64,000 nucleotides of DNA from Methanomassiliicoccales archaeon (GTDB lineage Archaea > Thermoplasmatota > Thermoplasmata > RBG-16-68-12 > SOIM01), in contig JAUVGH010000002.1 of the NCBI GenBank assembly GCA_030593885.1, positions 21,922 to 85,921 of the forward strand, given 5' to 3'. This document shows positions 5,391-64,000 of the stretch, one piece after another. The notes beneath the pieces were generated by a model that was not told the origin of the DNA, searched no databases, and was given only the letters and a program-made list of their open reading frames with translations. The first letter of the stretch is position 1, and every line of letters begins with the position of its first letter. The position numbers were made by a program, and so were the translations under genes.

Positions 5391-5435
5391 GATTGAGCGC
5401 AAAACCCAAAATGAATATATCATTGAAATGACCTT

Positions 5436-6650: not shown

Positions 6651-7781
6651 ATGAGGATATCAATGCAACTCAAATCGGTGGCGATCTGCATTCTAGTCGT
6701 CAGCGCCATCGTTCCTTTGGCCGCAACCATCGTCCTCGCACAGGACGTCACGCCTCCTGAGATACTCGATGTAACGCTAACTCCGAAGTACCCTCAAGAA
6801 GCTGATTCGCACGTATTCACCGCAAGAATCATCGATTCTGAGAGCGCCATACAGGTTGTTGAGTTGGCCTATTGCCCACTGGGCCAGGCCTGCCTGTTCA
6901 CAGAGATGTTCGATCTTGATATGGACGATATCTACGACGCTACGGTAGGTCCGTTCATGACTGGTGACGTTTATGATTACTTCATTTCAACCAGGGACAC
7001 CGAGAGTAACTTGAACCAAACAGAAATCACCTGGGTTAAGGTCGCCGCTGACATAACCTTCGATTTCCAGCTGAGTGCCAGCATGATTGTGCAGGGCAAG
7101 AGCCTATGGGCAAACGGCACGGCGTTGTACGATGACAACACGACGACACCTGTGGAGACCTCAGACGTCGGCCTTACGATAGATGGAACGTCCGTAGATG
7201 TTACTGGCACCACCGACGACAAAGGAAATTTCAGCATCCCTTTCACCGCACCTGAGACTGCCGACGACTATGAGGTGAATGTCACGGTCACTAACAGATC
7301 TTTGTCCAATTACAGTCTGGCTCCTCTCAACACAACCCTGCCAGGAGACGCTGACGGGGACGGTCTCACTGATGATGAAGAGATTGCGCTTGGCACTGAT
7401 CCTCAGGATGCGGACACAGATGATGACGGACTGGACGATTATGAGGAAGTCAACGCGGGCGATGACGGTTACACAACCAACGCGACCAACAGCGATACGG
7501 ACGGGGACGGGCTCAATGACTGGGAAGAGATCAACGAAGGAGAGGACACTTTCCTCACTGACCCGACGAACGAGGACACGGACGGGGACGGAGCCACGGA
7601 CTCAGAGGACTGGGACCCTACCGACTCGAGCGTCCAGGAGGAACCTAAAGAAGAGGACCTGACCTGGATGTATTTGATGATCGTCGTAATCGTGGTCGTT
7701 GTTATTGTATTGGCTGTCTTACTTATGCGAAGAAGGTCTGGCGCAGAAACATTAGAACCTGAGGAAGAAGATTCATCCTAG
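6651..7781 (+). CDS. Secreted protein with thrombospondin type-3-like Ca-binding repeats (DxDxDGxxDxxE) and C-terminal TM anchor
   Basis: Signal peptide. Run of 'DADGDGLTDDEE / DTDDDGLDDYEE / DTDGDGLNDWEE / DTDGDGATDSED' repeats. C-terminal hydrophobic helix followed by RRRS. Confidence 0.7.
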   Translation: MRISMQLKSVAICILVVSAIVPLAATIVLAQDVTPPEILDVTLTPKYPQEADSHVFTARIIDSESAIQVVELAYCPLGQACLFTEMFDLDMDDIYDATVGPFMTGDVYDYFISTRDTESNLNQTEITWVKVAADITFDFQLSASMIVQGKSLWANGTALYDDNTTTPVETSDVGLTIDGTSVDVTGTTDDKGNFSIPFTAPETADDYEVNVTVTNRSLSNYSLAPLNTTLPGDADGDGLTDDEEIALGTDPQDADTDDDGLDDYEEVNAGDDGYTTNATNSDTDGDGLNDWEEINEGEDTFLTDPTNEDTDGDGATDSEDWDPTDSSVQEEPKEEDLTWMYLMIVVIVVVVIVLAVLLMRRRSGAETLEPEEEDSS

Positions 7782-7840
7782 CCCTGCTGATTCTCTCTCG
7801 ATACCAGAATGTTATCAACTGGACTGAAGTTCCCGCAAAA

Positions 7841-7850
7841 TACTATATAT
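7841..7850 (+). promoter_or_regulatory. Archaeal TATA box (tactatatat) with a purine-rich BRE-like element upstream, serving the 7896 gene. A Shine-Dalgarno 'aggaggt' lies at 7884-7890.
   Basis: AT-rich TATA-like octamer ~45 bp upstream of the ATG at 7896. Strong SD 6 nt upstream of the ATG. Confidence 0.4.
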
Positions 7851-7895
7851 GTTATATGGTATAGTCTACATATCTGGAGGCAAGGAGGTCCATCC

Positions 7896-26018: not shown

Positions 26019-29000
26019 TTGATGTTGGGCAGAAATAGGGGAGCAACTAGGATTCTAGCTATAGCCATAGTCCTCATTCTGCCGGTCCTTGGGGTCATGG
26101 ATCTGAGCAGGAGCAATCTGTGGACTCTCGAGGAGACCTTCGAAAGCACATTCGATCTGATGTATGCAGCGATGGGATTCACGTGGACCACCCAGACGAT
26201 CGATACGAGGGGGAGCATGGGGCCGTACACGTCCTTGGAGCTTGATTCCAACGAGCTGCCCCACATCAGTTATTACGATGAGACCAACGGTGACCTGAGA
26301 TATGTTGATCGATTTGGCAGTGGATGGTTGATAACCATAGTAGACAGCGCCGGAGATGTCGGGTTGTACACGTCCCTGGCATTGGACCAGTTCGACCGTC
26401 CCCACATCAGCTACTACAAGAAGAGCACAGGGGACCTGAAATATGCCTACCACGACGGGAACGCCTTCCAGATCACCACCGTGGACCATCTCAGGAACAC
26501 TGGATTGTTCACATCCATGGTGCTGGATTCCAGCGACACGCCATACATCAGCTACTACGAGAAGGACCTGGGGGCGCTGAAGTTCGCAGTTCTTAATGGG
26601 ACCGATTGGGAAACATACTATCTAGACGACGTGGGAGATGTGGGCCTCTACACCTCAATCGCTCTGGACCCGGATGAGAATCCCAGTATCAGCTATTACG
26701 ACAAGACCCGTGGTGATCTGAAGCTCATAAGGTTCAACGGCACCGCTTGGCAAACTCCGAGAATCATAGATGCCGGCGGTGACGTCGGATTGTATGCCTC
26801 ACTGGCAATAGGCAACAACGGGGTACCGCACATAAGTTACTTCGACAAGACCAAAGGTGACCTGAAGTTCGCCGTTGCCCAGCAATGGTTCATGGACATC
26901 AAGACGATCTCCTCTGCTGGCGTCAGGGGGATGTACACATCCTTGGTCCTGGGTTCCGACGGTCTGGCCCACATAAGCTACTACGATAAGACGAACGGGG
27001 ACCTGAGGTACGCATTTGGAATGGGCTTCGACTGGCAGGATATGGACGTTCACATGGACGGGGACACCGGCCTCTACACTTCCATAGAGGTCAATTCAGA
27101 GAACCGTCCTCTCATCAGCTACGTCGGGCCGTCCTTCGAAGGGTCCGCCGACCCGGCTGTGGGCGTGGACTGCGATAGGGGTGACAGCTGTTCTTACGTT
27201 CACATGGTCTGGGTGGAGACATATCAGACCTCTAGGAACGCCTACCAGCGAGTATACTACCAGAGGAGCGATGACAAGGGGAAGACCTGGGACATGGATA
27301 TTCGTCCAATCTCGGGTGAATGGAGACATTTCGCCAGTTTTCCCAATATGCTGATGTCCGGCCCGCCTGTGATTTCGGTCATCGGGAAGACAATCCATGT
27401 CATCTGGGCCCATGAGTTCACAGTAGGGTTCGCCAGCAGGGGCGGGATATTCTACCAGCGCAGCGATGACAACGGGGACACCTGGCTTCCCAGCGAGGTT
27501 CGAGTCGATGATGTCCCCTCTTCTGCTCCATCCCCAGCGCTCCCTGAGTCCGTTTCCATGTACGCCGACGAGGACTACATCAACGTGGTCTGGATGTCCG
27601 ACCTGAAGATCTATAGCACGCGTTCACTTGTGAGCGAGGCCCGCACTTCAAGTGGATGGGTCACGGAGTTCGGGAAACACAGTTCTGTGGTCGCTGACGT
27701 GAGCGGAAGAACCTTCATAGCCTCGTTCGACGAGAGCAGAGGGGATCTTCTGATATCTGCATCCGGAGGTTTCGGAGAGTTCGATACCGAGGTAATCGAC
27801 TGGACGGGGATCGTGGGCCAGCACACGTCAATCGCCCTGGGACCCGGCACCTATCCCTACCCCAGCATTGCGTATTACGATGAAACAAATGGAGACTTGA
27901 GATTCGCAGAGTGGAACGGGTCACATTGGCTGATCAGCACTGTGGACTCGGTCGACGACGTGGGACATTACGCTTCTTTGAAGATTGATTCCAATGCGCT
28001 TGCCCATATTGCATATTACGATCTAACGAAGGGAGAGCTCAGATACGCCAGATGGGACGGGATGTCATGGCTTCTGGATATCGTGGACGACTTCGGGGAC
28101 GTCGGGCAGTACGCATCGTTGGACCTGGATCGAGATGATCTTCCATCCATCAGCTATTACAATGCCACCGGAAAGGAACTGAAGTTCACCAGCTGGAACG
28201 GCACCGCCTGGAACAATGAGATGGTGGACGATTCCGCAGACGTCGGCAAGTACTCCTCTCTTGCGGTGGATTCGGAACATCATCCTCACATCAGCTATTA
28301 TGATGAGACCAACAAGCATGTCAAGTACGCGTTCCACAACGGGACGGCCTGGGAGATCGAGCTCGCAGATGGTACGGACCTGGTGGGAGAATACACATCC
28401 ATCGCGTTGGAATCTGGGAATGTTCCGTTCATTAGCTATTATGACATGGGGAACACAAACCTCAAGCTGACTCGCAAATCACCATCTGGCTGGATGTCCG
28501 AGGTCCTGGACGATGATGGGAACGTCGGCAAGTACACATCGGTAGCCACAGACATGTTCAATGAAGTTTACATCAGCTATTATGACGAGACCAACCAGAG
28601 ACTCAAGTTGTACAGCACCAGCCTCGGATGGCGCCGACAGGCAGTGCAAAGGGACGAGATGATCTCATATCCGCTCTACGGCGAGGCCAGGGATAAGTAC
28701 CGGACCGCGTCCACACCAGACATTGATGGTGATGAAGGAAGGGTGCATGTGGTCTATTCTGAGAGCATATCGCCGAAAGGGGACCTCAAGTTCGCTCAAT
28801 GGAACGGGACCCAGTGGAGGACCGAGACCATCGATGAAGAGGGAATGGTGGGGATGGACACCAGCTTGGTCGTCGATTCTTTCGACCGACCCCACATCTG
28901 TTACTTCGACCAGTCCAATACCCGACTGAAATACACCCACTGGACCGGTACCGAATGGCAGATAGAGGTGGTGGACGATGGCATTGATGTGGGACGGGAA

Positions 29001-31271
29001 TGCTCGATTGCACTTGACTCCAAGGACCAGGTCCACATTACTTACCAGGATGTGGGGAACGGACCTCTGAAGTACGCCAAGAAGTTGGACGGTGTATGGA
29101 ATGTCGGGATAGTCGGGGATGTGGCTCCTGCAGCAGGCTGGTACAACTCGCTGGCCATTGACAGCAACGATCAACCCCACGTGGCTTACCTCAGCTGGGC
29201 CAGCTTCGCAATCAAGTACACATACTTCGATGGGAAGAAGTGGACGTTCATTCATGTGGACAGCAAGGGATGGAAACAGGTCTCTTTGGCGCTTGATTCC
29301 AACGATCAGCCTCACTTGGCGTACAACGACAGGACCGAACTTGGTGCGAAGTACACTTACTGGGATGGTTCCACCTGGGTGATGCAGATTGTCGACGATT
29401 CCTCTCCTTGGGTGGGCACATACGCGAATCTGGCATTGACCGAGGATGACAAGCCGGTAATGTCGTATTATGATGAGACCCGAGGCGATCTGAAGTTCGC
29501 CAGACCCGAGTATCCGGCTTCGAACACGGCCAAAGTGGACTTCGTCCACAGCGTCGGGATGTACAATTCATTGGAGTTGGATGACTTCGGGGCAGCCCAC
29601 ATCAGCTACTACGACAATGAAGCGGGCGAGCTGAGGTATGCAAAATGGGTACCTGGGGGCTTCAGTGTGGAAACGGTGGATGCATCTGGGGACGTGGGTA
29701 TGTACACCTCTCTTGAGTTGAATTCTCTTGGCTATCCGATGATCTCGTACTATGACGAATCGGGCGGAAATGGGTTGTTCCACACGGAAGGTGCAACAGA
29801 CGGGAGCGAGGCGTGGACGGAAGATGTCCAATTGAACGAGAGAGTCAAGAGGGACATAGGATCGCCTGAAGTAGAGGTCGAGAAGAAGACGGTCCACGTG
29901 GTCTGGGACGAGTTCAATCTGTACTCGAGACAGTCCAACATCTTCTACAAGAGGAGCAATGACAACGGAACGGCCTGGCCGTATCCAGATATCGCCATCA
30001 ATGATGATACGACCACTGGACAGATATTCAGTCAGAATCCCAGCATGCAGGTGAACGGTGCGACCATCGAGGTTGCGTGGGAACGCAGCGTGAGCGTGGG
30101 GATAGGACTGTCCAATGAGGAATTGATATATGACATTAACAGGGCGAACGGAGGCCCTTCTGGCTGGGGTCCGGACCGAGTAGTGTCCCCCAATCCGCCG
30201 ATCTTCCCGCGATTCAAGGCGTACCAGGCGTCCATGAGGACGGTTGGCAACGACAGGCACATGGTCTGGATATTCTGGGGCGGGGTCACGGTACAAGAGA
30301 TCGAGTACTTCGGGATATCGGATGATCTGTTGGAAGTCGGAGACTTGACCGAGGGCAGGAAGGGGGCCTCCAGCGTTTTCGTGATAGACCCATTGACCCT
30401 CAGGAATGAGATAATCGTGGTGGGAGGCAAGAACCAATCTGGATTCCTGGACAGGGTCACGAAGGTCGATGCGAGGACCGGGGCCGAACAGGATTACTGC
30501 AACCTCCCAACTGGTCTGGCCTATACGTCGGTTGTCTGGGACGACAAGGATTCGGTGTTCATCTTCGGAGGACTTTCGAGCACTGGAGCTGAGGCGAGTA
30601 TTCTGAGAGTGAATCTGTCGACCGCGGTCCCAGGAGACATGTGCACGGACACAGGGTTTACACTTGCTTCTGGGAGATACGGCACTTCAGCAGTTTACGA
30701 TGAATCGACCGATACCGCGTACGTGTTCGGGGGTACAGATGGTGCTGGGACATACTCCGCGGAGATAGTGAAATGGCCCAGATTGGGCGTGCCAGTAGGT
30801 TTCGGTATTCTGCCTTCCGAGAGGGCTTTCACTTCGGCAGTCTGGGATCACGATAGAAACAAGGCTTTCGTTTTCGGAGGCCTGGGTCAATTGGGACATC
30901 TGGACGAGATAGTTGAGTTCAGGGACGTTGGTGTACCAGATGTTGCCGTTCTTTCCAATGCTAAGCTGCCAACGGCAAGGTCCGCCACGTCAGCTGCATA
31001 CGACGGAACTTACGCATACATCATCGGCGGCGTATCGAACACCGGAGCCATCTCCGAGATCGTCAGGTTCAACCCGAGAGGCGACTGGACGGCAGGCGTG
31101 ATATTGGCCTGTACTGAGCTCCCTCAAGGACTGGAGAACGCATCGGCATCGATGTCAGCAAGCGCCAGATCGCACATCGGCGGGATATTCGTGGTGGGCG
31201 GTGAGAACGAGACTGCCATCATGTTAGATGTCTGGAGCTATAAGCCGGCCTACTGGGGGTACCTCGACTAG
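26019..31271 (+). CDS. Secreted 1750-aa repeat protein: about 25 copies of a ~45-aa 'HISYYDxTNGDLKYA...W....VD..GDVGxYTSLAxD' repeat, 3 BNR/Asp-box motifs, C-terminal Kelch-like repeats
   Basis: N-terminal TM/signal. Highly regular 45-aa periodicity through aa 60-1230. Asp-boxes 'RSDDKGKTW', 'RSDDNGDTW', 'RSNDNGTAW'. Kelch-like 'FIFGG/YVFGG/FVFGG/YIIGG' blades at the C-terminus. Confidence 0.85.
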   Translation: MMLGRNRGATRILAIAIVLILPVLGVMDLSRSNLWTLEETFESTFDLMYAAMGFTWTTQTIDTRGSMGPYTSLELDSNELPHISYYDETNGDLRYVDRFGSGWLITIVDSAGDVGLYTSLALDQFDRPHISYYKKSTGDLKYAYHDGNAFQITTVDHLRNTGLFTSMVLDSSDTPYISYYEKDLGALKFAVLNGTDWETYYLDDVGDVGLYTSIALDPDENPSISYYDKTRGDLKLIRFNGTAWQTPRIIDAGGDVGLYASLAIGNNGVPHISYFDKTKGDLKFAVAQQWFMDIKTISSAGVRGMYTSLVLGSDGLAHISYYDKTNGDLRYAFGMGFDWQDMDVHMDGDTGLYTSIEVNSENRPLISYVGPSFEGSADPAVGVDCDRGDSCSYVHMVWVETYQTSRNAYQRVYYQRSDDKGKTWDMDIRPISGEWRHFASFPNMLMSGPPVISVIGKTIHVIWAHEFTVGFASRGGIFYQRSDDNGDTWLPSEVRVDDVPSSAPSPALPESVSMYADEDYINVVWMSDLKIYSTRSLVSEARTSSGWVTEFGKHSSVVADVSGRTFIASFDESRGDLLISASGGFGEFDTEVIDWTGIVGQHTSIALGPGTYPYPSIAYYDETNGDLRFAEWNGSHWLISTVDSVDDVGHYASLKIDSNALAHIAYYDLTKGELRYARWDGMSWLLDIVDDFGDVGQYASLDLDRDDLPSISYYNATGKELKFTSWNGTAWNNEMVDDSADVGKYSSLAVDSEHHPHISYYDETNKHVKYAFHNGTAWEIELADGTDLVGEYTSIALESGNVPFISYYDMGNTNLKLTRKSPSGWMSEVLDDDGNVGKYTSVATDMFNEVYISYYDETNQRLKLYSTSLGWRRQAVQRDEMISYPLYGEARDKYRTASTPDIDGDEGRVHVVYSESISPKGDLKFAQWNGTQWRTETIDEEGMVGMDTSLVVDSFDRPHICYFDQSNTRLKYTHWTGTEWQIEVVDDGIDVGRECSIALDSKDQVHITYQDVGNGPLKYAKKLDGVWNVGIVGDVAPAAGWYNSLAIDSNDQPHVAYLSWASFAIKYTYFDGKKWTFIHVDSKGWKQVSLALDSNDQPHLAYNDRTELGAKYTYWDGSTWVMQIVDDSSPWVGTYANLALTEDDKPVMSYYDETRGDLKFARPEYPASNTAKVDFVHSVGMYNSLELDDFGAAHISYYDNEAGELRYAKWVPGGFSVETVDASGDVGMYTSLELNSLGYPMISYYDESGGNGLFHTEGATDGSEAWTEDVQLNERVKRDIGSPEVEVEKKTVHVVWDEFNLYSRQSNIFYKRSNDNGTAWPYPDIAINDDTTTGQIFSQNPSMQVNGATIEVAWERSVSVGIGLSNEELIYDINRANGGPSGWGPDRVVSPNPPIFPRFKAYQASMRTVGNDRHMVWIFWGGVTVQEIEYFGISDDLLEVGDLTEGRKGASSVFVIDPLTLRNEIIVVGGKNQSGFLDRVTKVDARTGAEQDYCNLPTGLAYTSVVWDDKDSVFIFGGLSSTGAEASILRVNLSTAVPGDMCTDTGFTLASGRYGTSAVYDESTDTAYVFGGTDGAGTYSAEIVKWPRLGVPVGFGILPSERAFTSAVWDHDRNKAFVFGGLGQLGHLDEIVEFRDVGVPDVAVLSNAKLPTARSATSAAYDGTYAYIIGGVSNTGAISEIVRFNPRGDWTAGVILACTELPQGLENASASMSASARSHIGGIFVVGGENETAIMLDVWSYKPAYWGYLD

Positions 31272-53850: not shown

Positions 53851-55187
53851 CTGAATCCCTCCAGTGCCTTGATGAGGGAATCGCGGTCCACCTTGGTGTG
53901 CATCTCGGTGGTGCAGAATAAGGCGCAGTTCTCGAGCTCCTGGAAGTTGCTGGCCAAGGACAGTCCACCCTGAATCCCCTTCCAGTGGAGGTGTTCGTGG
54001 ACCTTGGCATAGTCCGCTTCAGACCTGACAACGAACTCGTTGAAATGTGTACCGCTGAAGACAGGTGCGGCGAAACCCTCTAACGATCCTATCTCCTTTG
54101 CCAGGTACCTTGATCTGAGGATGTTCTCCTTCGCTACCCTTCTGAGACCGGTCCTTCCCAGTATCGCCACATGAATCGCGAACGCGACCGATCCAAGCGA
54201 TTCGTTGGTGCAGATATTGCTGGTGGCCTTCTCCCTTCTTATGTGCTGTTCCCTGGTCTGCAGGGCCATGGTGAACGCTCTTCGACCGTGGACGTCCTTG
54301 GTGGCTCCGATCATCCTTCCGGGCATTCTCCTGATGTGTTCCTTCCTGCATGCGAAGATACCGACCAGCGGACCGCCGAAGTTCATGGGGTTCCCGAGAA
54401 TCTGGCCTTCTCCGACAACGATGTCCGCACCTAAGTTCCCCGGAGCTTCGGCAACGGCGAGGGATAGAGGATTCGCACCTACGATTAGGAGGACGTCTCC
54501 AATGGCCTCTTTGACCTCCGCGATGTTCTCGAATACGCCGAAGAGGTTGGGCGATTCAAGGTAGACTGCAGATGTCTGGTCATCCAGCTTGGCTTTGAGG
54601 TCCGAGATGTCGATCATCCCAGTATCGCCGTCATACTGAACCTCGTCCACATGAAGCCCGGGACCTTTTGCGTAGTTGTTCAGCACGGATCTCTTCTCCC
54701 AGTGGATCGCCCTTGGGATGAGGATCTTCTTCTTACCGGATATGCGAACGCTCATCAACGCGGCTTCGGCCAGTGCGGTGGAGGCATCATACATGGATGA
54801 GTTGGCTGCGTCCATCCCGGTGAGCTCGCAGACGAAGCTTTGGTACTCGAAGAGGGCCTGGAGCATGCCCTGGCTGATCTCCGGTTGATATGGGGTGTAA
54901 GACGAGTAGAACTCTGATCGGGATATCATCTCGAAAACGGCTGCTGGGATGTAGTGATGGTAGACCCCCGCACCGAGGAAGCTGGGCATTTCACAAGCTG
55001 TTCGGTTCTTGCCGAGGATCTCCATGACGTTCCTTCGGACCTCCTTCTCGGGTAGCCCTTTCTCGATGTTCAAGGGACCTGTACGGACATCGTTGGGAAT
55101 GTCAGAAAAAAGCTCCTCGACGCTCCTCAACCCCAACTCCTCAAGCATCTCAGATTCTTCGGATGCCATGCAACCCACAGAAAACAA
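53847..55187 (-). CDS. gcvPA: Glycine dehydrogenase (decarboxylating) subunit 1
   Basis: GcvPA-family sequence. 4-nt overlap with gcvPB. Confidence 0.9.
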   Translation of the reverse strand: MFSVGCMASEESEMLEELGLRSVEELFSDIPNDVRTGPLNIEKGLPEKEVRRNVMEILGKNRTACEMPSFLGAGVYHHYIPAAVFEMISRSEFYSSYTPYQPEISQGMLQALFEYQSFVCELTGMDAANSSMYDASTALAEAALMSVRISGKKKILIPRAIHWEKRSVLNNYAKGPGLHVDEVQYDGDTGMIDISDLKAKLDDQTSAVYLESPNLFGVFENIAEVKEAIGDVLLIVGANPLSLAVAEAPGNLGADIVVGEGQILGNPMNFGGPLVGIFACRKEHIRRMPGRMIGATKDVHGRRAFTMALQTREQHIRREKATSNICTNESLGSVAFAIHVAILGRTGLRRVAKENILRSRYLAKEIGSLEGFAAPVFSGTHFNEFVVRSEADYAKVHEHLHWKGIQGGLSLASNFQELENCALFCTTEMHTKVDRDSLIKALEGFS

Positions 55188-55219
55188 ATGCGGTCTATTA
55201 ACCTTTGCCCATTCACGTC

Positions 55220-55426
55220 CTAGCCGCCAGAAACAACGGATATCAGTGTAAGGATTTCGCCGTCCGTAAGAGGTTCATCGATGGGTATGGGGCGTTGAAA
55301 TCGGGCCAAGATGATGCTGTCCGGGGTCAGATCAAGAGATTCGACCAACGACATGCCCGTGGCACCTTCTTCGAGCTCGACCTCCTTCGTCTCCTTCGAC
55401 GGTATGAACTGAACTGTGATCTTCAT
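55220..55426 (-). CDS. MoaD/ThiS/SAMP-type ubiquitin-like small protein (ends in GG)
   Basis: 68-aa beta-grasp-like sequence terminating in 'SGG'. Confidence 0.55.
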   Translation of the reverse strand: MKITVQFIPSKETKEVELEEGATGMSLVESLDLTPDSIILARFQRPIPIDEPLTDGEILTLISVVSGG

Positions 55427-55476
55427 CGATACCGATATCGTTATAACTCAACCAGATATTATAATTTGACCCGAAT

Positions 55477-55597
55477 GCCGAGGTAGCTAAGCCCGGTTCA
55501 CGGCGATGGCCTCGAGTGTTGTCCAGACCGTAGAAAAGATGACCGCGACAGCCATTGGTGCTTCTGCACCGCGGGAGTTCGAATCTCCCCCTCGGCG
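55477..55597 (+). tRNA. tRNA-Ser (anticodon CGA) with a 33-nt intron at the canonical 37/38 position (55517-55549)
   Basis: Hand-folded cloverleaf. Acceptor GCCGAGG/CCTCGGC. 3-bp D stem with a GG-containing D loop. Anticodon stem ATGGC/GCCAT with loop CT-CGA-G, then the intron, then A. Long variable arm (GGTGC-TTCT-GCACC). T arm GGGAG-TTCGAAT-CTCCC. Discriminator G73. No encoded CCA. Confidence 0.7.
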
Positions 55598-55809
55598 TTT
55601 AACCAAAGGCTAAGATTCATTTTGCGAACATGCACTACTCGATGAAAGATATGTTTGACCTCCTCATACTGCGTCAAACTCGAGTCTCATGTGTCTAATG
55701 CATGTCCAATCCGGGTGAAGATTATCATATCAGAGAAGTCGTGATGCAAATGTCTTAATAGCTCAAGAGTATTTATGGCTAGAATTTCGCCAGTCGTGGG
55801 GGAGCGTAC

Positions 55810-56313
55810 TTGATAAACAAGAACTATGAGGAAATTGTTCTAAGAGCAAAAGAGGCAGTGCACGATTTGGAGGAGCCTTTCAGGAGCATAGCTTTCAAAG
55901 AAGTATTGAATGATCTGATGAGAGAGTCGGTGGAGTCTCTCCCACCATTGGAGCGTGCTGAAGGAATCGACTCGTCGGGAGGGTTCTTGGAGTCCCACGG
56001 TATTCAGACCTTGAGACAGTTGATAAACCTAACCAAACCACAATCCCATCCTGCCAAGACTCTCGTCATAGCCTACTACTCAATGCAAGCCAAGGGCCTG
56101 GACGTGTTTCAGACGGAGTCCATTATAGATGGATATCGAGAGGCCCTTATGAAACCTCCAACAAACCCAAGCGATATCATCTATAAGAACAAGAAGAAAG
56201 GATTCTTCATGAACATGGAGGATGAAGCTGGAGAATCAGGCTGTAGCATCACTGACCAAGGTATCAAAGAGATAGAAAGCAGGATTACTAAGGCCATGGA
56301 AGAGAAAGATTGA
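55810..56313 (+). CDS. Hypothetical protein, paralog of 57245..57751 (unknown family)
   Basis: C-terminal ~75 aa align with the other paralog ('V.A.Y....G..F.T......Y.EA...PTN.....I...KKG.........G..IT..G...ES'). Confidence 0.5.
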   Translation: MINKNYEEIVLRAKEAVHDLEEPFRSIAFKEVLNDLMRESVESLPPLERAEGIDSSGGFLESHGIQTLRQLINLTKPQSHPAKTLVIAYYSMQAKGLDVFQTESIIDGYREALMKPPTNPSDIIYKNKKKGFFMNMEDEAGESGCSITDQGIKEIESRITKAMEEKD

Positions 56314-56867
56314 ATTGTACGAAATTCCTAGACGATATAATTTGATTGCATTCCATATCCACAGATTGGTCGTAGATTTCTTCTGGAGTATTGCCACATC
56401 ATGAAGACTAGCTGGTTGAAGCATGATTGAAGATGTAACTCTCGATACAGGGAGATCTAAGGGAGCTTTAGTTTAGAATCGCTTCACTATATTTGTGCCA
56501 AACCCTCATCCGTGGTCATATCCGCAGGGGTCCATCCGAATCTCATTGAACATACTTTGAATACTGACACTGGCATAATCTTCACTCATCTATTCCCGCA
56601 ATAGCCAAAGATGTATAGCCCCAAAGAACAGGAGAGAGGCTCTCATTCTAATGAAACTGATTCCGGATTCAGGGATGTTTCATGCACGATGGACAGGTTA
56701 TGTGAATATCTCTCACAAAGTATGTGGAATCCAATTGTGGGTCGGGTCAGAGAAGGACCAGTCCCGAGATCCATTGTTCGTCTCGGCATCACTTTCACTC
56801 AACCCTACCCAAAATGACTTTATATCGTGGATGTGATAATACGTTGTTCAAAACATGAGGCATTAGG

Positions 56868-57248
56868 ATGAACACGAAGAAAATCCAGTCCTTATTCGTT
56901 GATGAAAAGGAAGTCGGCGAGGAAATCCTGTACGAAGCGATTTCGCCCTTCATCAGATTTGGTAAGGAATCCAACAGCGTGATATTTACTCCGGAATACT
57001 ATGAACTCGGGAACCGGGAAAAAGTTCTTGTATACCTACTGGCCCTCAAAGCAGCTGGTTTCCTCGGGCTAACCTCGGTTGGCGAATCTGCCTCCCCAAA
57101 GGCAATCTCAGCGGCGACTGGAGTCACATACAACTCGATCAAGCCTATTCTTTCTGGACTCGCGAAGAACGGTTTGCTGGCAAGAGAGGGTGGTAGGTAC
57201 TCCGTCCCGAATCATAACATCTTGAGGATCAAGGAGATGATGTCTTGA
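56868..57248 (+). CDS. Winged helix-turn-helix transcriptional regulator (MarR/ArsR-like)
   Basis: C-terminal 'PKAISAATGVTYNSIKPILSGLAKNGLLAREGGRYSV' is typical of HTH plus wing. Confidence 0.55.
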   Translation: MNTKKIQSLFVDEKEVGEEILYEAISPFIRFGKESNSVIFTPEYYELGNREKVLVYLLALKAAGFLGLTSVGESASPKAISAATGVTYNSIKPILSGLAKNGLLAREGGRYSVPNHNILRIKEMMS

Positions 57249-57751
57249 ATGAGCGGATTGAAAGAATGAAGAAAGTGGTCTCAGCTGCGAAGGAGGTCTC
57301 CGAATCAATCGAAGAATCTTCCCAGAAGGATGTTGCCCTTGCAGAGGTTCTTCGCAAGATGCTCGACTTGGAGTTCCCCCTTCCAGGAAGGAAGGACATT
57401 GTTGCCGAAACAAGACTCGAAGACACTCCTGCCGTAGTGGAATCCGATGTCTCGAGAATCTCTATCGGAGAATACTTGATAGAGAATGACCTGAAAACCC
57501 ATACGGATATTGTCCTGGCTATGGCGTACTTTCTCCTGAAGAACAGGAATCAGGTTGAATTCACAAGTGCAGATTTGAATGCCCTATACGAGGAGGCTCG
57601 ACATCCGAAGACAAACATCAATCTGGCGATTATCTCTAACATTAAGAAGGGCCTCATGGTTGAGAGAGGAAAGAAGGAGGGGTACAAGCTCTTCTCCATT
57701 TCAATGACTGGAGAAAGATATGTTGAAAGTAATTTCAGTTTTCCAAAGTGA
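57245..57751 (+). CDS. Hypothetical protein, paralog of 55810..56313; translationally coupled to the wHTH gene
   Basis: ATGA overlap with the upstream gene. Paralogy as described for 55810..56313. Confidence 0.5.
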   Translation: MNERIERMKKVVSAAKEVSESIEESSQKDVALAEVLRKMLDLEFPLPGRKDIVAETRLEDTPAVVESDVSRISIGEYLIENDLKTHTDIVLAMAYFLLKNRNQVEFTSADLNALYEEARHPKTNINLAIISNIKKGLMVERGKKEGYKLFSISMTGERYVESNFSFPK

Positions 57752-57763
57752 CGGGGGCTATCT

Positions 57764-58549
57764 TTGACCACATCACCTCTACTAAGGAACGCAGTAGAAT
57801 CTCTCGAACATGGCCTGGATCACTACTCTAGAAACACTGGCCTGGATCGGAAATTCGCGATTCTCCATATAGATCAGGCTATCGAGCTCATACTGAAGGA
57901 AGCAGTACGCTCGCTGGGTCTGTCGATCTACCGTAAGGACAGAAAGACGACCATTGGCCTCCACGAAGCTCTAGATATTCTCCAAGACAATGGTGTTGCT
58001 GTTCAGGAAAGACCAGACCTAGAGCTTCTTCACGATGAGAGAAACAGTATTCAACACACGAATTCCACCCCAGATGAGGATACGACTGTATTCTATGTTG
58101 AGACTGTACTGAGGTTCACTTCTCAATTCCTGCCCAATCAGCTTGGTGCGAATTTAGAGGACATGATGTCCCAGAAGGATTATGAGGAGATCTATGGGAC
58201 ATTCGAGGACAGAGATGTAGAGTCGAAGATGCAATCCCTCCTAGAGTCATCAGCCAAGAACTCAATTCTTGACACGGCTTCATCCATTGTCTCAGCATCG
58301 ATTTGCCTGGAACTCCTCCTGAGACATAGACTCCCAGAGACTATCGAGAATGTCGATCAAATGACCATTGAAGAACTACTTGGGCTAGCCGGTGAAACTG
58401 GAGTGTTGAACGGTGGAAGTCAAGCATTCGCTCGGGATTTGCTAGCTGTCAGGAATAGAGTCATGCATGAGGGGTACAAGCCGTCGACTGGGAACGCAGT
58501 TGACTTCTACCATTTCGTGAAGAGGCTGGTAGAGAAGGATTCTGGCTAG
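57764..58549 (+). CDS. Putative tandem-HEPN RNase-like protein (two R-N-x3-H motifs)
   Basis: 'LLHDERNSIQH' (aa 88-98; nt 58040-58057) and 'LLAVRNRVMHEG' (aa 226-237; nt 58451-58468) both fit the HEPN Rx4-6H motif with the usual Asn after Arg. Predicted alpha-helical. Confidence 0.45.
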   Translation: MTTSPLLRNAVESLEHGLDHYSRNTGLDRKFAILHIDQAIELILKEAVRSLGLSIYRKDRKTTIGLHEALDILQDNGVAVQERPDLELLHDERNSIQHTNSTPDEDTTVFYVETVLRFTSQFLPNQLGANLEDMMSQKDYEEIYGTFEDRDVESKMQSLLESSAKNSILDTASSIVSASICLELLLRHRLPETIENVDQMTIEELLGLAGETGVLNGGSQAFARDLLAVRNRVMHEGYKPSTGNAVDFYHFVKRLVEKDSG

Positions 58550-58925
58550 TCCTTTGGCATTCCGGCCTCTATTCCCGTCCTATGAGGCCTGTAAAAGAAC
58601 ATCCCCAACATTGAGCTAGGATTCTTATGTCAAAGAGGTGCCCTAGCGAAATGGGTTATTAGTCAAACACTCACCTTTGGAGGGGGGGGAGTCGCAGGAT
58701 GATGTGTTTCGGCAAGACAGCTATTGCAGGAGACTAATGTCTCAGAAAACGATGAGGTTATGGGAATGAAGCCAAAGGCATTCGAAATACTCTCGGACCT
58801 TCTCCAGCAGGTAAGAGAGAATCAGCTTAAGAATACGAGATGATTCGAACCTTGGCTATTCATCTCCCCCCGGCGTAATTCCTTCAATGTTCGACCTTCT
58901 CCCAGAATCAAGCTCGAAAAACAAC

Positions 58926-59195
58926 TCAAAACAGCTTGGAGAAGTCATCATAGACGTTCTTTCTGTGTCCAATGAACAACACGATCACTCTGTTCTCTTC
59001 TTCATCAATCTCATATATCGCCCTGTAGTCCCCGATCCTCAAGGTCCGGAAGTCGGAATACCTCAAGCGTTTGCCTCTTCGCTCTGGATGATCCTCCAAT
59101 TCCTCCACTCTGCTCTTAATCCTCGCTCTTAAGTCCTTATCTAACTTGGAAAGAAACCTGGTAGATTTGGGGTGAAGAAGGACCTTGAAACTCAT
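58926..59195 (-). CDS. RelE/ParE-family toxin
   Basis: 89-aa protein with RelE/ParE-like features ('...RIGDYRAIYEIDEEENRVIVLFIGHRKNVY'). 4-nt overlap with the upstream RHH gene. Confidence 0.75.
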   Translation of the reverse strand: MSFKVLLHPKSTRFLSKLDKDLRARIKSRVEELEDHPERRGKRLRYSDFRTLRIGDYRAIYEIDEEENRVIVLFIGHRKNVYDDFSKLF

Positions 59196-59413
59196 TCGAT
59201 TTCCTCAAGAGGCACGAGGATCTCGGGCTTCTCCCTCGCCTCCTTACTCCTTTCGACCAGCATCTGGTAGAACTCGCGTGTCTTCTCACGTTCCTCATAC
59301 AGAGCGACAATCGTCTTGATCGCGTCGCTTCTGCTCTTGAACCTGCCTCTGGACACCCATCGGTCAATGTCCTTCACGAGGTCTTCTGGCATTCTCAGTT
59401 GGACCTGGACCAT
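59192..59413 (-). CDS. Ribbon-helix-helix (CopG-like) antitoxin
   Basis: 'MVQVQLRMPEDLVKDIDRWVSRGRFKSRSDAIKTIV' is an RHH fold. It lies upstream of, and overlaps, the toxin gene. Confidence 0.7.
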   Translation of the reverse strand: MVQVQLRMPEDLVKDIDRWVSRGRFKSRSDAIKTIVALYEEREKTREFYQMLVERSKEAREKPEILVPLEEIE

Positions 59414-59573
59414 TATCTATCACTGTAAACAGAATTGTTTACAAAGTACTTCAACCTTTCTTTGGGGTTCTCACACGTGTAAACAGGAAGCTGGCCCGAG
59501 AAGATCCTGTGGAGAGATATCATTCACAGGTGGACTGGCTTTCGAATCTCCTACACGGCGTTCCAGAAAAGAA

Positions 59574-59762
59574 TCAACCGCCCCACTGCCACTCGGCGTA
59601 TGCAACGACGGCGATCATGAGAATGCCGAAAAGTACGACCAGCTTGGGATTGACCTTGAGGGCCTTCTCGTCCTCTGAATCGAAGTATCTGATCAATCCA
59701 GCCGCGGAATGGAATCCTTCCTTCTTGCTTTCCTTAGGCAATCTCCGACCTCGAGGTGTCAA
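59574..59762 (-). CDS. secG: Preprotein translocase subunit Sec61beta (SecG)
   Basis: 'SAAGLIRYFDSE...' motif plus a single C-terminal TM helix, at the typical ~60 aa size. Confidence 0.7.
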   Translation of the reverse strand: MTPRGRRLPKESKKEGFHSAAGLIRYFDSEDEKALKVNPKLVVLFGILMIAVVAYAEWQWGG

Positions 59763-60036
59763 TTAACGAATGGGATATAAATAGGTTTCGAGGATGATCG
59801 ATGGAAGGGTCTCTGGCACGTGCGGAATGTTGGTTCTGATTCTTGGCTGTGTACATAACCGAAGAATGGCGTGGTGTTGATTGATTTCCAGCCCTTTTTG
59901 GTTACACATATGACCGAAGAATGAGCGTTCTACGAGGGATGCCTTCCAAAAGATAACTAACATCTGGCTACCAATTATGACAACATATAAATACACCCAA
60001 TCTTAATGATACTGCCCCTAAAACCATTGGTACAAC

Positions 60037-60324
60037 ATGCGGAGGAGTACGATGACGGAGGAGAACACAGTATACATTGGAAAAAAGCCGACCATGAACT
60101 ACGTTCTGGCCGTGGTGACACAATTCAACAGTGGTTCGGATGAGGTTGTCATCAAGGCTAGAGGGAGATCGATCAGCAAGGCCGTGGACGTTGCGGAGAT
60201 AACCAGGAACAGGTTCGTGCAGGACGCGGAGTTGACAGACATAAAGATTTCCACGGAAGAGCTGGAGGGAGAGGAAGGCAGGGTAGCAAACGTCTCAAGC
60301 ATCGAGATATTCCTGAAGAAATAA
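60037..60324 (+). CDS. albA: DNA/RNA-binding protein Alba
   Basis: '[49 protein letters not shown]' is the canonical Alba core. Confidence 0.85.
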
Positions 60325-60389
60325 GCGGGACGAGTGCACATTTTTTCGAGTGTTGCATCCAGCATCCGAGTAGCGGAGAGTTTACAGAG

Positions 60390-61628
60390 ATGTCGAACGG
60401 TCTAGGAGAAGTGGTCGAAGCCGCAAAGGAGGCAGAGATAGCGGAGAAGCTCTCGGATAAACCGTTGTGCGACCATTGTCTCGGTAGGCTCTTTGGCAAG
60501 GTTTCGACAGGGCTGGACAACCCGAGCAGAGGCAAGGCGATCAGAAAATCCCTTGGTTTTGAGCTGGGCGACAAGTGCTGGCTGTGCGAGGGACTCTTCG
60601 ATGAGATAGAGAAGTTCAGCGACATGATCGAGGAGGAGCTGGAGAACATAGAGTACGATAGCTTCCTGGTGGGCAGCAAGATAGACCCTGAGATAGAGTC
60701 CAGGGAAGAGAACCTGTGGGTGGAGCTGGACCTGCACAACTTCGAGATAACCAAGGCGGAGATGAACCGGGAGATCGGCAAGATACTCGAACCGAGGACC
60801 GGAAAGGTGGTTGAGTTCAAGAGGCCGGACGTGGTGGCGCTGATGAACACAGCTTTCGATGACGTGGAGCTCACCATAAACCCCATATTCGTCTACGGAA
60901 GGTACAAGAAGTTCGTCAGGGACGTTCCCCAGACCACCTGGTCGTGTCGTTCGTGCTGGGGCGTCGGATGCGAGAAGTGCGACAACACAGGAAAAGAATA
61001 CCAGCACAGCGTGAAGGACCTGATCGGCGAACCGTTCCTAGTAGAAACGGACAGCGAGGACTATTCATTCCACGGAGCCGGCAGGGAGGACGTGGATGTC
61101 AAGATGCTTGGAAGGGGAAGGCCGTTCGTGCTGGAACTCTTGCGTCCGAAGAAGAGGACGATCGACCTGCAGAAGATGCAGAAAGAGGTCAACAGATCAG
61201 AGGCCATCGAGGTCACCGATCTCAAGCCTTCAAGCCGCAAGGAGATTGTGGAACTGAAGTCCGCCAGGTACGCCAAGAGCTACAAGGCGATCGTCGAACT
61301 GGACCAGCCAGTGCCAGAACCAAAACTTAAAGAAGTAGTATCATCATTCAAGGGAGAAGAGATCGCCCAGCAGACGCCAGCGCGGGTCGCCAAGCGAAGA
61401 GCGGACAAGGTACGGAAAAGGACGATACAGGACATAGAAGCGACCTTGCTCGATGACGGAACTGCTGAGATCTACATCAAGGCGGAAGCTGGAACGTACA
61501 TCAAGGAGTTGGTCAACGGAGACGAGGGGAGGACCAGGCCGAGTCTGGCAGAGATGTTAGGGGTAGGTTGCAGAGTCAAGTTTCTTGATGTGATGGATAT
61601 ACACGACGAGGATGGTGAAGATGGTTAG
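60390..61628 (+). CDS. pus10: tRNA pseudouridine synthase Pus10
   Basis: N-terminal zinc ribbon 'LCDHCLGRLFGK...CWLCEGLF', a second 'CRSCWGVGCEKC', a THUMP-like and a PUS catalytic region. Size typical of archaeal Pus10. Confidence 0.75.
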   Translation: MSNGLGEVVEAAKEAEIAEKLSDKPLCDHCLGRLFGKVSTGLDNPSRGKAIRKSLGFELGDKCWLCEGLFDEIEKFSDMIEEELENIEYDSFLVGSKIDPEIESREENLWVELDLHNFEITKAEMNREIGKILEPRTGKVVEFKRPDVVALMNTAFDDVELTINPIFVYGRYKKFVRDVPQTTWSCRSCWGVGCEKCDNTGKEYQHSVKDLIGEPFLVETDSEDYSFHGAGREDVDVKMLGRGRPFVLELLRPKKRTIDLQKMQKEVNRSEAIEVTDLKPSSRKEIVELKSARYAKSYKAIVELDQPVPEPKLKEVVSSFKGEEIAQQTPARVAKRRADKVRKRTIQDIEATLLDDGTAEIYIKAEAGTYIKELVNGDEGRTRPSLAEMLGVGCRVKFLDVMDIHDEDGEDG

Positions 61629-61914
61629 AGCGTCAAAAGGAACAAGGAGAAGGACGAGGCATAAGTTCAGCAAGAAGGCACGGGAAAGAGGACTATCGCC
61701 TATCACAAGGAGCTTCGTCGAGTACTCCGAAGGGGAGAAGGCCAACATCGTCATCGACCCGAGCATACAGAAGGGTCAACCTCATTCACGTTTTCACGGT
61801 CAAACCGGGACAGTGATCGGGACCCAGGGGGGCGCATACCTCCTGAAGGTCAGAATGGGCAACGCCATGAAGACGGTGGTCGTGAGCCCAGAACATTTAA
61901 GGAAGTCGAGGTAG
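61612..61914 (+). CDS. rpl21e: 50S ribosomal protein L21e
   Basis: 'RASKGTRRRTRHKF...' eL21 signature. Confidence 0.85.
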   Translation: MVKMVRASKGTRRRTRHKFSKKARERGLSPITRSFVEYSEGEKANIVIDPSIQKGQPHSRFHGQTGTVIGTQGGAYLLKVRMGNAMKTVVVSPEHLRKSR

Positions 61915-61924
61915 GGGGTTTTTC

Positions 61925-62248
61925 TTGGTTAAAGAAGAGTATCTGTCCCTTGCAGATGTGAAAGAATTGCTTGAGAAGGAAAAGGACAACAGGGAAGAGC
62001 TGATGCCCGAGCAGAAGCTGGCCCTCTCGCACGCCGATGCGTTCGCCAAGCTGTCCAGGACGAAGGTGAAGAAGCTGGTCGCCGAACTCGTCAAGATGGA
62101 CCAGATGTCCGAGCCGAACGCGTACAAGATCGCGGACCTGATGCCGGAGGAACCGGAAGAGGTCAGGGCGATATTCTCCAAGGAGAGGTTCACGCTCACC
62201 AAGGATGAGACCGACCAGGTTCTCAAGCTCGTGAGGAAATATCTTTGA
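61925..62248 (+). CDS. rpoF: DNA-directed RNA polymerase subunit Rpo4/F (probable)
   Basis: ~107-aa helical protein in the conserved archaeal L21e-RpoF-DUF655 gene order. The assignment rests mostly on synteny. Confidence 0.5.
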   Translation: MVKEEYLSLADVKELLEKEKDNREELMPEQKLALSHADAFAKLSRTKVKKLVAELVKMDQMSEPNAYKIADLMPEEPEEVRAIFSKERFTLTKDETDQVLKLVRKYL

Positions 62249-62252: not shown

Positions 62253-62807
62253 GTGGTTTTGGAAGACTATGCACACATCCTGGATTATTTGCCCCAAGGA
62301 AGAGTTGAGGGCGGCAGGTTCGGCAAGGAGCCGATAGCGTACGCCCTGGGCGAGGACGAGTTCAAGCTGTTCGAGCTGATACCGAAGGAAAATGCCACTA
62401 TGGTGATCGGGGACAGGGTGTACGTCGGGAAAGAGGTCGAGCAGAGGCAGGATATCCTTCATGTAAAGCGGAGGATAAGCTATGACGAGCTTACGAACGC
62501 TGCCCAGAGCGAGCTGATGTTCGTCATCGACAAGGTCGTCAAGGAGAAGGAGGAGAAGTTCGTTACATTCTTCAATCACGCTCAGTCGATCACCACCAGG
62601 TTCCACATGTTGGAGCTGTTGCCTGGTCTGGGCAAGAAGAGCATGTGGTCCATCGTTGAGGAGAGGAGAAGGGGGGATTTCGTCAGTTTTGATAATCTGG
62701 CGAAGAGGGTCGGTTCGATACCTCATCCGGCGAAGTTTGTGGCCAAGAGGATACACTTGGAGATATCGGACCCGGAGCAGAAGTATCATATTTTTGTGGC
62801 GAAGTAG
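62253..62807 (+). CDS. DUF655-family archaeal RNA-binding protein
   Basis: Conserved partner of rpoF. Contains an S1/OB-like N-terminus and a helix-hairpin-helix-like C-terminus ('LELLPGLGKKSMWSIVEERR'). Confidence 0.65.
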   Translation: MVLEDYAHILDYLPQGRVEGGRFGKEPIAYALGEDEFKLFELIPKENATMVIGDRVYVGKEVEQRQDILHVKRRISYDELTNAAQSELMFVIDKVVKEKEEKFVTFFNHAQSITTRFHMLELLPGLGKKSMWSIVEERRRGDFVSFDNLAKRVGSIPHPAKFVAKRIHLEISDPEQKYHIFVAK

Positions 62808-62865
62808 TTCGGCTTGAGGCAAAAGGATTTCATACACGTTTCACCCTACGGATATCCGAGGGATA

Positions 62866-63291
62866 ATGCCAAAACGCGTCGAAAAGATCCGGATTGTCAC
62901 TGACGGAGCATCCAGAGGTAACCCAGGTCCCGCCGCAATCGCTTACGGCATTTACGATGAGAACTGGAATCGCCTGAGAGAGAACAAGGAATACATCGGT
63001 AGTGCCACAAGTAATGAGGCTGAGTACAGGGCCCTTATCGAAGCTCTTGACTGTGCGACGGAGCATTGCAGACAGGAGATTGAACACTACTCCGACAGTG
63101 AGCTGGTCATAAAACACTTGAGTGGAGAGTACAGAGTGAAAGCCAAGAACCTGAAACCTCTCATCGAAGAGGTCTTCAACAAGAGGCAATACTTCAATTC
63201 AGTAACTCACAAGCACTTGCCGAGATCCAACCCGAGAATTCAACGAATAGACAATCTTGTGAATCAAGAGCTGGATGATTTGGGATACTGA
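62866..63291 (+). CDS. rnhA: Ribonuclease HI
   Basis: RNase H type 1 catalytic residues in context ('IVTDGASRGNPGPAAIAYGI', 'TSNEAEYRALIEAL', 'YSDSELVIKH'). Confidence 0.8.
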   Translation: MPKRVEKIRIVTDGASRGNPGPAAIAYGIYDENWNRLRENKEYIGSATSNEAEYRALIEALDCATEHCRQEIEHYSDSELVIKHLSGEYRVKAKNLKPLIEEVFNKRQYFNSVTHKHLPRSNPRIQRIDNLVNQELDDLGY

Positions 63292-63352
63292 CACCAATTA
63301 GCCCTTACATGACTACTGGTGCGGAGGTTGAAACCTGAATTCAAGCGACCTT

Positions 63353-63925
63353 GTGAAAGGTAGACTCATCTTCGATGAGAGGAATGATGAAGTTCTTCGA
63401 AGAAGATGGAGAAGGTTCAAGATCAAAACAATAGGGCTCTCGATATTCCTTGCTGTCATTGTTCTCTTCGTTCTGGTTCTCTTTTGGCATCGTTCTGAAC
63501 AGACTGATTCCTTGTTCGTGTTTCTGATGCTTTGGTCTGCAACCTTCTTAGGCGGCCTCGCCATTATCTCTCTTCTGGTTGGCCTTTGGAGGTCACCACA
63601 CACACTTGTCTTTGAGAATGGAGTAGAGTTCTATGGAGGTCTTCTCTCCAAGAGACAGTTCTTCCGATTTGAATCGATTGAGAAAGTGTATGCTCGAATC
63701 GATGACAATAGTGGAATCAGTATGGATTACATCGTGCTGATTCTCAACAAAGTGGCAAAGAAGAGGCATTTGGTGTTGGGTGAGGGTCACTTCGTTGACA
63801 TCGAGAAACTCTTTGAACTAATCGAGAGTAAGGTGATGGTTGATTTCGAACCGGTGAGAGAAGAGGAACTGGTGAGAACCCTGCGAAAGAGGGGGATCCT
63901 GGGGCGGTTCGAAACGCTCATATAG
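63353..63925 (+). CDS. Hypothetical membrane protein (2 TM helices)
   Basis: Two hydrophobic helices near the N-terminus. No recognisable family. Confidence 0.4.
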   Translation: MKGRLIFDERNDEVLRRRWRRFKIKTIGLSIFLAVIVLFVLVLFWHRSEQTDSLFVFLMLWSATFLGGLAIISLLVGLWRSPHTLVFENGVEFYGGLLSKRQFFRFESIEKVYARIDDNSGISMDYIVLILNKVAKKRHLVLGEGHFVDIEKLFELIESKVMVDFEPVREEELVRTLRKRGILGRFETLI

Positions 63926-64000
63926 TGTGCCAGGGTTACCGCCAAAATCGCGTGAAAGAGTTCACTCATAGAGGATGAACCAGCAAAAGTACTTTCATCC

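Follow-up and report, generated by a model that had tools for sequence, protein, structure and literature searches.

The DNA analysed here (the window) is a stretch of 64,000 nucleotides from a Methanomassiliicoccales archaeon (GenBank assembly GCA_030593885.1, contig JAUVGH010000002.1, positions 21,922 to 85,921), and all positions below refer to it unless another contig is named. It contains a gene for tRNA-Ser(CGA), followed by roughly 4 kb of AT-rich DNA (55598-59560) that an earlier examination of the sequence alone had marked out as an island without an integrase, whose boundary is a displaced tRNA 3' end and which is possibly made up of two tandem islets. The segment is divided by two displaced tRNA ends, and the proximal part, islet 1, is missing with precise endpoints from a close relative, L005. 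The features of the locus, including putative attachment (att) sites and open reading frames (ORFs), are as follows.

55477..55597, + strand: tRNA-Ser(CGA) with a 33-nt intron after position 37, found by ARAGORN with introns allowed and by Rfam RF00005; putative integration target and present attL
55578..55597, + strand: putative attL core, from the T-loop to the discriminator base; its last 15 nt (55583-55597) recur at the inner boundary
55598..58875, + strand: islet 1 (the putatively younger one), 3.28 kb including the distal repeat, 45.9 % GC, absent from L005
55810..56313, + strand: ORF167, a divergent ORF168 paralogue (BLASTP against ORF168, E 1e-5)
56314..56867, no strand: non-coding AT-rich gap of 554 nt inside islet 1, no gene remnant detected
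56868..57248, + strand: ORF126, small winged-helix protein (TrmB/MarR-like), first gene of a three-gene operon; weak Pfam and PHROG winged-helix matches
57245..57751, + strand: ORF168, with an N-terminal helical hairpin, a disordered linker and a C-terminal MarR-like winged helix
57764..58549, + strand: ORF261, tandem-HEPN protein; motifs RNSIQH (residues 93-98) and RNRVMH (230-235)
58862..58875, + strand: putative att', ATCTCCCCC-CGGCG, closing islet 1 on its right and bordering islet 2 on its left; exact breakpoint of the L005 indel
58876..59560, + strand: islet 2 (the putatively older one), 685 bp, 47.6 % GC, in both the window and L005
58926..59195, - strand: RelE/ParE-family toxin (PF05016, 4.7e-13; TIGR02385, 2.3e-7; phrog_1213, 4.6e-18), intact in L005
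59192..59413, - strand: ribbon-helix-helix (RHH) antitoxin (PF01402, 7.2e-5), overlapping the toxin gene by 4 nt, intact in L005
59541..59560, + strand: putative att'', TTCGAATCTCCTACACGGCG, matching the tRNA 3' end at 17 of 20 positions; outer boundary, with Sec61beta 14 nt away
59574..59762, - strand: Sec61beta (secG; PF03911, 3.7e-12), first core gene past the island

When introns were allowed, ARAGORN called the tRNA-Ser(CGA) at 55476-55598 with the intron at the canonical 37/38 position, and an Rfam search restricted to the region matched RF00005 over 55477-55597 (38.4 bits, E 1e-5). Read by eye, the same interval is a class II tRNA with an intron inside. Neither default ARAGORN nor Rfam at the gathering threshold reported a tRNA anywhere in the window, the tRNA-Ser(CGA) being missed by both because of its 33-nt intron. 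As this is the sole tRNA of the window, such default pipelines would overlook the anchor of the island.

The 3' end of the tRNA, TTCGAATCTCCCCCTCGGCG (55578-55597), has one other match with three or fewer mismatches on either strand of the 64 kb, namely 59541-59560. This outer copy is identical at 17 of 20 positions, has the same orientation as the tRNA, and is embedded in similarity extending to 24/31. None of 100 dinucleotide shuffles produced such a match (chance expectation about zero per window), and the proposed outer boundary of the ~4 kb island is thereby borne out. The inner copy (58862-58875) consists of the last 15 nt of the tRNA with one deletion. Sequences within one edit of ATCTCCCCCTCGGCG are found only there and in the tRNA itself, with 0.01 expected per 64 kb. 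All three copies of the tRNA 3' end are in direct orientation, each is far above chance, and att' is better preserved than att''. In L005, att'' is TTCGAATCTCCTCCACCGCG, also 17/20, with two mismatches common to both genomes and one private to each; the relic in their ancestor was therefore 18/20 and has drifted since, as a neutral relic would be expected to. At 59586-59599, 26 nt past the outer repeat and within the 3' end of the Sec61beta gene, there is a third partial copy (12/14), of CTCCCCCTCGGCGT. It is kept in L005 as coding sequence and is probably due to chance.

The GC content is 45.9 % in 55598-58875 and 47.6 % in 58876-59560, as against 53.8 % and 53.6 % in the flanks. Taken together, the enclosed 3.96 kb is about 46 % GC, compared with 53.4 ± 0.9 % for all other 3.96-kb windows (z = -7.7). 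In tetranucleotide composition, too, no other part of the window is as far from the rest as the island. The segment is thus AT-richer than the core, as had been noted by eye. The right compositional edge is blurred, the Sec61beta gene and the intergenic region (59561-60036) being likewise 46 % GC. As also predicted, core genes resume right after the island, with Sec61beta 14 nt past the outer repeat and then Alba and Pus10.

Two other parts of the window also deviate in composition. The second largest tetranucleotide deviation is found over two giant ORFs, 12187-25860 (4557 aa) and 26019-31271 (1750 aa), with many near-identical repeats of ~140 aa; from their sequences, these look like surface or adhesin-like proteins. 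At 62750-64000, GC falls again, to 44-48 %; the genes here encode an RNase H-like protein (RVT_3/RNase_H, 62866-63291) and a small membrane protein. Collinearity with a second relative, L004, stops at 62834, and this end of the window may be another variable segment.

Relatives were retrieved with the downstream Pus10 gene in a single scan of genome contigs, and these are two Thermoplasmata metagenome-assembled genomes, L005 and L004. L005 (SCS3bin.24) is ~92 % identical and in blastn matches window positions 54778-55598 at 94 % and 58862-62080 at 91 %. The two match blocks are adjacent in L005, where they overlap by 16 nt. L005 is therefore without exactly 55599-58861, and the junction lies inside the 15-nt repeat. 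The intact L005 tRNA-Ser(CGA) runs directly into ...CGGCG and then TAATCCCTTCAAC..., which is the window sequence following the inner repeat. A precise indel with breakpoints in the 15-nt repeat is the signature of site-specific integration or excision. Islet 2 is retained in L005, with the RelE/RHH module and an outer repeat of its own, and since the L005 tRNA joins that module at the inner repeat, the island consists of two tandem islets. The weaker inner match had been suggested as the mark of such a division. Of the three structural claims made in the original prediction, this inner boundary is the most strongly supported, thanks to the comparative data.

The arrangement was also found outside the assembly. 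Islet 1 recurs at 99.9 % identity on three Logan metagenome contigs. Since one of these runs across both islets as far as Pus10, an assembly artefact can be dismissed. Looking up the exact RelE protein recovered this same Logan contig only, and no empty-site contig. The empty site expected in related genomes, with the tRNA directly beside secG, was not found: L005 is the only syntenic relative, and it lacks islet 1 but not islet 2. No relative without islet 2 was recovered, and presence/absence polymorphism with breakpoints in the repeats holds for islet 1 only.

L004 (JAGLME010000015.1) is 96 % identical to the window in Pus10 and is collinear with it only from 59906 onward. Upstream of Alba it has more than 9.5 kb (1-9517) of 46-50 % GC that is unrelated to the island and ends with a gene for a 233-aa tyrosine recombinase (8113-8814; PF00589, 1.2e-10) and an RHH gene (8877-9173). 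The recombinase gene is 0.7 kb from the Alba-side breakpoint. Neither a tRNA-Ser fragment nor Sec61beta was found within 10 kb in L004. This segment is a second, integrase-bearing island or a rearrangement in the same neighbourhood. L004 is therefore no empty site, and the presence of foreign DNA near its Alba gene indicates that the neighbourhood repeatedly takes up foreign DNA in this lineage. Between Sec61beta and Alba, the window has a 29-nt direct repeat (59840-59868 and 59895-59923, 72 % identity, 55-nt spacing). The L004 breakpoint at 59906 falls within the second copy, and the repeat could be a scar or att site of an L004-type element.

Further loci were sought in the JGI collection. 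A scan with a 24-mer specific to the intron found no relatives. A scan with the 28-nt tRNA 3' end found 43 loci, none of them a close relative; those examined are mostly tRNA-Ser(GGA) genes of other archaea, and no distal repeat of a full-size island was found among them. At one, L019, a complete tyrosine recombinase (PF00589, 2e-31) is encoded ~0.5 kb past a tRNA-Ser(GGA) with the identical 28-nt 3' end, and an ORF near-identical to this recombinase is present at a second tRNA-Ser(GGA) locus, L024. Directly after the tRNA-Ser(GGA), L031 has a gene for an AAA_21 (AbiEii-like) ATPase, a close homologue of which occurs in L039, and L030 has one for an IrrE/M78 peptidase. L032, L035, L036 and L048 group with these loci bearing mobile or defence genes only by shared sequence just after the tRNA. 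In L018 (FWPU01070941.1), a distant GC-rich relative, the SAMP2-tRNA-Ser(CGA) synteny is retained, and a tandem duplicate of ~122 nt is found ~100 nt past the tRNA. The duplicate opens with a fragment of the tRNA 3' end, in which the final 20 nt of the tRNA are copied perfectly, and from its sequence looks like another displaced tRNA end.

The gene content is as described in the original prediction: the + strand has four ORFs, among them a HEPN-like one, and the - strand has the RelE/ParE-RHH pair. The pair in islet 2 has the type II toxin-antitoxin layout, with a small RHH antitoxin gene ahead of a gene for a RelE/ParE-fold toxin in one operon. Between the window and L005, synonymous and non-synonymous codon changes in these two genes are about equal in number, and constraint is looser than on Alba or Sec61beta.

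In islet 1, the AlphaFold2 model of ORF168 has a predicted local distance difference test (pLDDT) score of 89.5 and gave Foldseek matches to MarR-family structures with probability ~1.0. A search of 1.84 billion cluster representatives found 278 that match ORF168 at E ≤ 1e-3. ORF168 is covered by no Pfam family, there being no curated family for a partner of this type, and a sequence-profile search of the PDB with the ORF168 and ORF261 families gave a marginal MarR match only. ORF126 is 43 % identical to a 127-aa gene product encoded at the same position in contig L009. ORF167 may also include a winged helix, judging from its homology to the ORF168 family (E 1e-5). It weakly matches the ORF168-family neighbours of HEPN genes and has no close homologue elsewhere, a word-index search of 5.8e9 proteins finding only itself. 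At the ORF126/ORF168 junction (57233-57290), there is a sub-threshold match to the C/D-box small RNA sR44 (22 bits against a gathering threshold of 45, E 0.025), which is probably spurious.

ORF261 belongs to a small family of 38 clusters, which includes full-length two-domain forms and single-domain forms of ~155 aa. Residues R93, N94, Q97 and H98 are invariant across 29 aligned homologues, and each of the eight two-domain homologues has a second R-x4-H motif, which reads R-N-x3-H in seven of them and R-S-x3-H in one. The AlphaFold2 model is all helical (pLDDT 93.4). At domain level, Foldseek matched 1wwp (probability 0.98), 5yep_C (0.95), 7bxo_F (0.96) and Csm6 (0.8), with weak whole-chain E values of 0.2-1.4, and the individual domains thus resemble HEPN proteins including HepT-type toxins and Csm6. 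ORF261 falls below the cut-off of the Pfam HEPN model PF05168 (15.6 vs 22 bits), and no Pfam or NCBIfam model matches it at cut-off. It does match the PADLOC profiles PDC-S19 and PDC-S64 (E ~4e-10), with N-terminal residues 5-164 aligned to positions 5-180 of profiles 339-357 positions long. We take both to be untested 'phage defence candidates'. ORF261 is most likely an RNase toxin or an abortive-infection effector. Its two RNxxxH motifs would form one composite site within a single chain, and the single-domain homologues would presumably form such a site by dimerizing. The winged-helix partners may repress the operon and/or neutralize the predicted HEPN toxin.

An ORF168-family gene (31-56 % identity) lies directly upstream of the HEPN gene in all five distinct homologous contexts examined (L009-L012, L006, L007, L008 and L013-L015). 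The ORF126 homologue (43 %) precedes this pair in L009-L012 only. Neighbours of the module include a restriction-modification system with LexA and RadC genes in L007, a ParE pair in L008 and HerA-NurA in L009-L012; the L007 contig is apparently bacterial and the L009-L012 contigs apparently archaeal. By these comparisons, ORF126-ORF168-HEPN is, at least in part, a predicted operon conserved on unrelated contigs, and the cargo of islet 1 looks like horizontally travelling defence or addiction genes.

No integrase or transposase match was found among the island ORFs, and six-frame translations of four non-coding stretches, including the att junctions, contained no recombinase or other Pfam family. 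The predicted lack of an integrase therefore stands. In the surroundings (46.9-64 kb, gcvPA/PB left out), the greedily selected ORFs of at least 90 aa are housekeeping genes and include no integrase. A split (suicidal) integrase of the SSV type was considered and rejected, since the frames crossing the att copies are ORFs of 44-120 aa with no Pfam match. A search for pseudogene debris was likewise negative, both with six-frame Pfam and with tblastn using proteins of the homologous cassettes (none below E 0.05). Nothing in the window is homologous to the L004 or L019 integrase, and neither enzyme shows a detectable link to the att site or to the islet genes.

A comparison of the island and its cargo with viruses and plasmids, proposed earlier as a check, yielded no close relative. 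Blastn of the island against phages and plasmids found no match. With ORF261, tblastn found no phage match and two weak N-terminal matches (E 2e-4, 38 % of ORF261) on enterobacterial conjugative plasmids. Protein-pattern scans of IMG/VR for ORF261 and ORF168 gave no match, and the att 20-mer is absent from IMG/VR.

We consider that the locus most probably (at a rough probability of 0.6) arose by serial site-specific integration at the 3' end of tRNA-Ser(CGA), followed by loss of the recombination genes, leaving two remnants that resemble cis-mobilizable elements (CIMEs). Before the split of the window and L005 lineages, a first element, with an attachment site (attP) copying at least the last 20 nt of the tRNA, would have integrated. 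The copy that it carried would have restored the tRNA, and the original 3' end, pushed out beside Sec61beta, would have decayed to the 17/20 match at 59541-59560. This element would then have eroded to 685 bp, with only the RelE/ParE-RHH addiction pair remaining. A toxin-antitoxin pair is a typical last survivor, since its loss is counter-selected. In the next step, a second element would have entered the restored tRNA end, displacing the previous copy to 58862-58875 and supplying the present tRNA end. What remains of it would be the 3.26 kb with four intact genes, namely the lone ORF167 and the operon for two winged-helix proteins and one tandem-HEPN protein. The integration was presumably performed by a tyrosine recombinase, and the islets would once have encoded integrases that both elements then lost. 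Neither islet would be self-mobile, and as both att copies are kept, a compatible incoming integrase could excise or co-mobilize them, following the CIME model. The order fits serial integration, as islet 1 is polymorphic and has the better-preserved repeat, and islet 2 is shared and has the more decayed one.

Several observations weigh against this history. There is no trace of a former integrase and the islet 1 ORFs are all intact, so decay would have had to remove internal DNA cleanly and leave both att copies in place. Searches of the phage, plasmid, IMG/VR and JGI collections did not recover the integrating element. The att' copy is 15 nt with a 1-nt deletion, as against at least 20 nt for att''. 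With a single syntenic relative, insertion in the window lineage and excision or deletion in L005 cannot be told apart.

The absence of debris can be read differently, namely that islet 1 never had an integrase and is a compact, att-only cargo mobilized in trans, the integrase being supplied by a different element with the same tRNA-Ser 3' end as its target, in which case it would be an archaeal counterpart of cis/trans-mobilizable islets. The islet is only 3.26 kb, its four ORFs are intact, both att copies are kept, and it is polymorphic between close relatives. Tyrosine recombinases are, moreover, active around the locus in this lineage, as in L004 at 0.7 kb from the Alba-side breakpoint, and in other archaea the complete integrase at L019 lies 0.5 kb past a tRNA-Ser(GGA) with the identical 28-nt 3' end. 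However, neither of these integrases could be linked to the att site or islet genes, no second copy of islet 1 elsewhere, circular junction or partner element was found, and att', with its deletion relative to the tRNA, is an imperfect substrate. Mobilization in trans is the less probable alternative, and decay is favoured over it. The further proposal that islet 1 is a live integrase-free cassette, moved between tRNA-Ser sites and delivering an undescribed winged helix/winged helix/tandem HEPN anti-virus or addiction module in archaea and bacteria, appears unlikely. Reversing the direction of the L005 change, the whole 4 kb might be ancestral and L005 might have lost 55599-58861 by recombination between short direct repeats, so that the polymorphism says nothing of a recent integration. 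Such a deletion, between the 15-nt repeats, would produce precisely the junction observed, and only one syntenic relative bears on the question. This leaves the tRNA-3'-end nature of the repeats unexplained and still needs two earlier integrations, differing from serial integration in timing alone, and the better preservation of att' than of att'' fits a younger islet 1. We regard it as distinctly unlikely.

The 15-nt repeat could also be a target-site duplication made by a transposase or casposase, islet 1 then being a non-autonomous transposon. Casposons produce duplications of 14-15 bp and some are inserted at tRNA 3' ends, which the repeat and its location resemble. However, terminal inverted repeats are absent from the islet: when its two 80-nt ends were aligned locally, the best score was below the shuffle mean, and a transposon or casposon was rejected on this ground. 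There is also no Cas1, polymerase or transposase domain, and the outer repeat is at least 20 nt and in the same tRNA register, as for att sites, making this origin very improbable. Finally, the repeats and low GC could be coincidental and the genes ordinary lineage-specific core genes, given that the Sec61beta region outside the island is also low in GC and that RelE/RHH is conserved in L005. This is the least tenable explanation and is refuted by the repeat statistics (about 0 and 0.01 expected per window), by the indel breakpoint in L005 lying exactly in the repeat, and by the GC deviation (z -7.7).

Under serial integration and decay, the pattern itself is an ordinary one, an integrase-less, CIME-like array of islets at a tRNA, here in Thermoplasmata. 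CIMEs and tandem accretion at the 3' ends of tRNA and other genes are known in Streptococcus (Pavlovic 2004, Bellanger 2011, as summarized in PMC5704250). According to this summary, CIMEs keep attL and attR, have lost the integration genes and lie one behind another at a target gene's 3' end, and the route to them leads from integration through decay to entry of the next element into the restored att site. The islets likewise retain attL and attR, both attR copies being imperfect, and are without integration and transfer genes. The CIMEs described there are bacterial derivatives of conjugative elements whose cis-mobilization was shown experimentally (PMC5704250), whereas here the host is archaeal, no parent element was found, the islets are much smaller, at 0.7 and 3.3 kb, and any mobility is hypothetical.

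The tycheposon islands of Prochlorococcus are similar in that integration is repeated at one tRNA with older elements pushed outward, partial tRNA copies mark old events, remnants are degenerate and the cargo is enriched in defensive or adaptive genes (10.1101/2020.12.28.424599). However, tycheposons have a tyrosine recombinase and replication modules of their own as defining features (10.1101/2020.12.28.424599), and none of these is present at this locus; they also belong to another domain of life. Archaeal elements of the SSV and pNOB8 types also target a tRNA 3' end, regenerate the tRNA and produce direct att repeats, but in the SSV type the gene is left split, its int(N) and int(C) parts lying at opposite ends, and in the pNOB8 type int is intact (PMC8371274); neither is seen in the islets. 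In tDNA islands of the Islander type, the regenerated tRNA and displaced piece delimit the island's ends exactly (PMC4383910), and an intact tRNA gene at one end and, at the other, a displaced tRNA part in direct repeat are both found here. Islander also demands an integrase gene in the island, of which this one has none, and the locus would be missed (PMC4383910). Island finders that require an integrase and tRNA finders blind to introns would both pass over such archaeal loci. With three dated att copies and a natural half-empty site in support, the locus is a clean small-scale case, in uncultured Thermoplasmata, of tRNA-linked islands growing by serial integration and decay.

The cargo may outweigh the island in interest, as the pair of ORF168-family winged-helix and HEPN genes recurs in archaeal and bacterial contigs, some of them rich in defence genes. 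The known or proposed HEPN toxin systems (HepT-MntA/DUF86, AbiD/F-like abortive-infection proteins, PDC-S19/S64) share with ORF261 the Rx4H motif, the all-helical HEPN fold, a small operon with a putative neutralizing or regulatory partner, and defence-island contexts. ORF261 differs from them in having two HEPN domains per chain and winged-helix partners rather than a nucleotidyltransferase, and the PADLOC profiles cover just its N-terminal 130-160 residues. The ORF168-family/HEPN module thus qualifies reasonably well as a possible new toxin-antitoxin or abortive-infection system of the HEPN kind, and the conserved winged-helix/tandem-HEPN operon is the part of the locus most worth following up.

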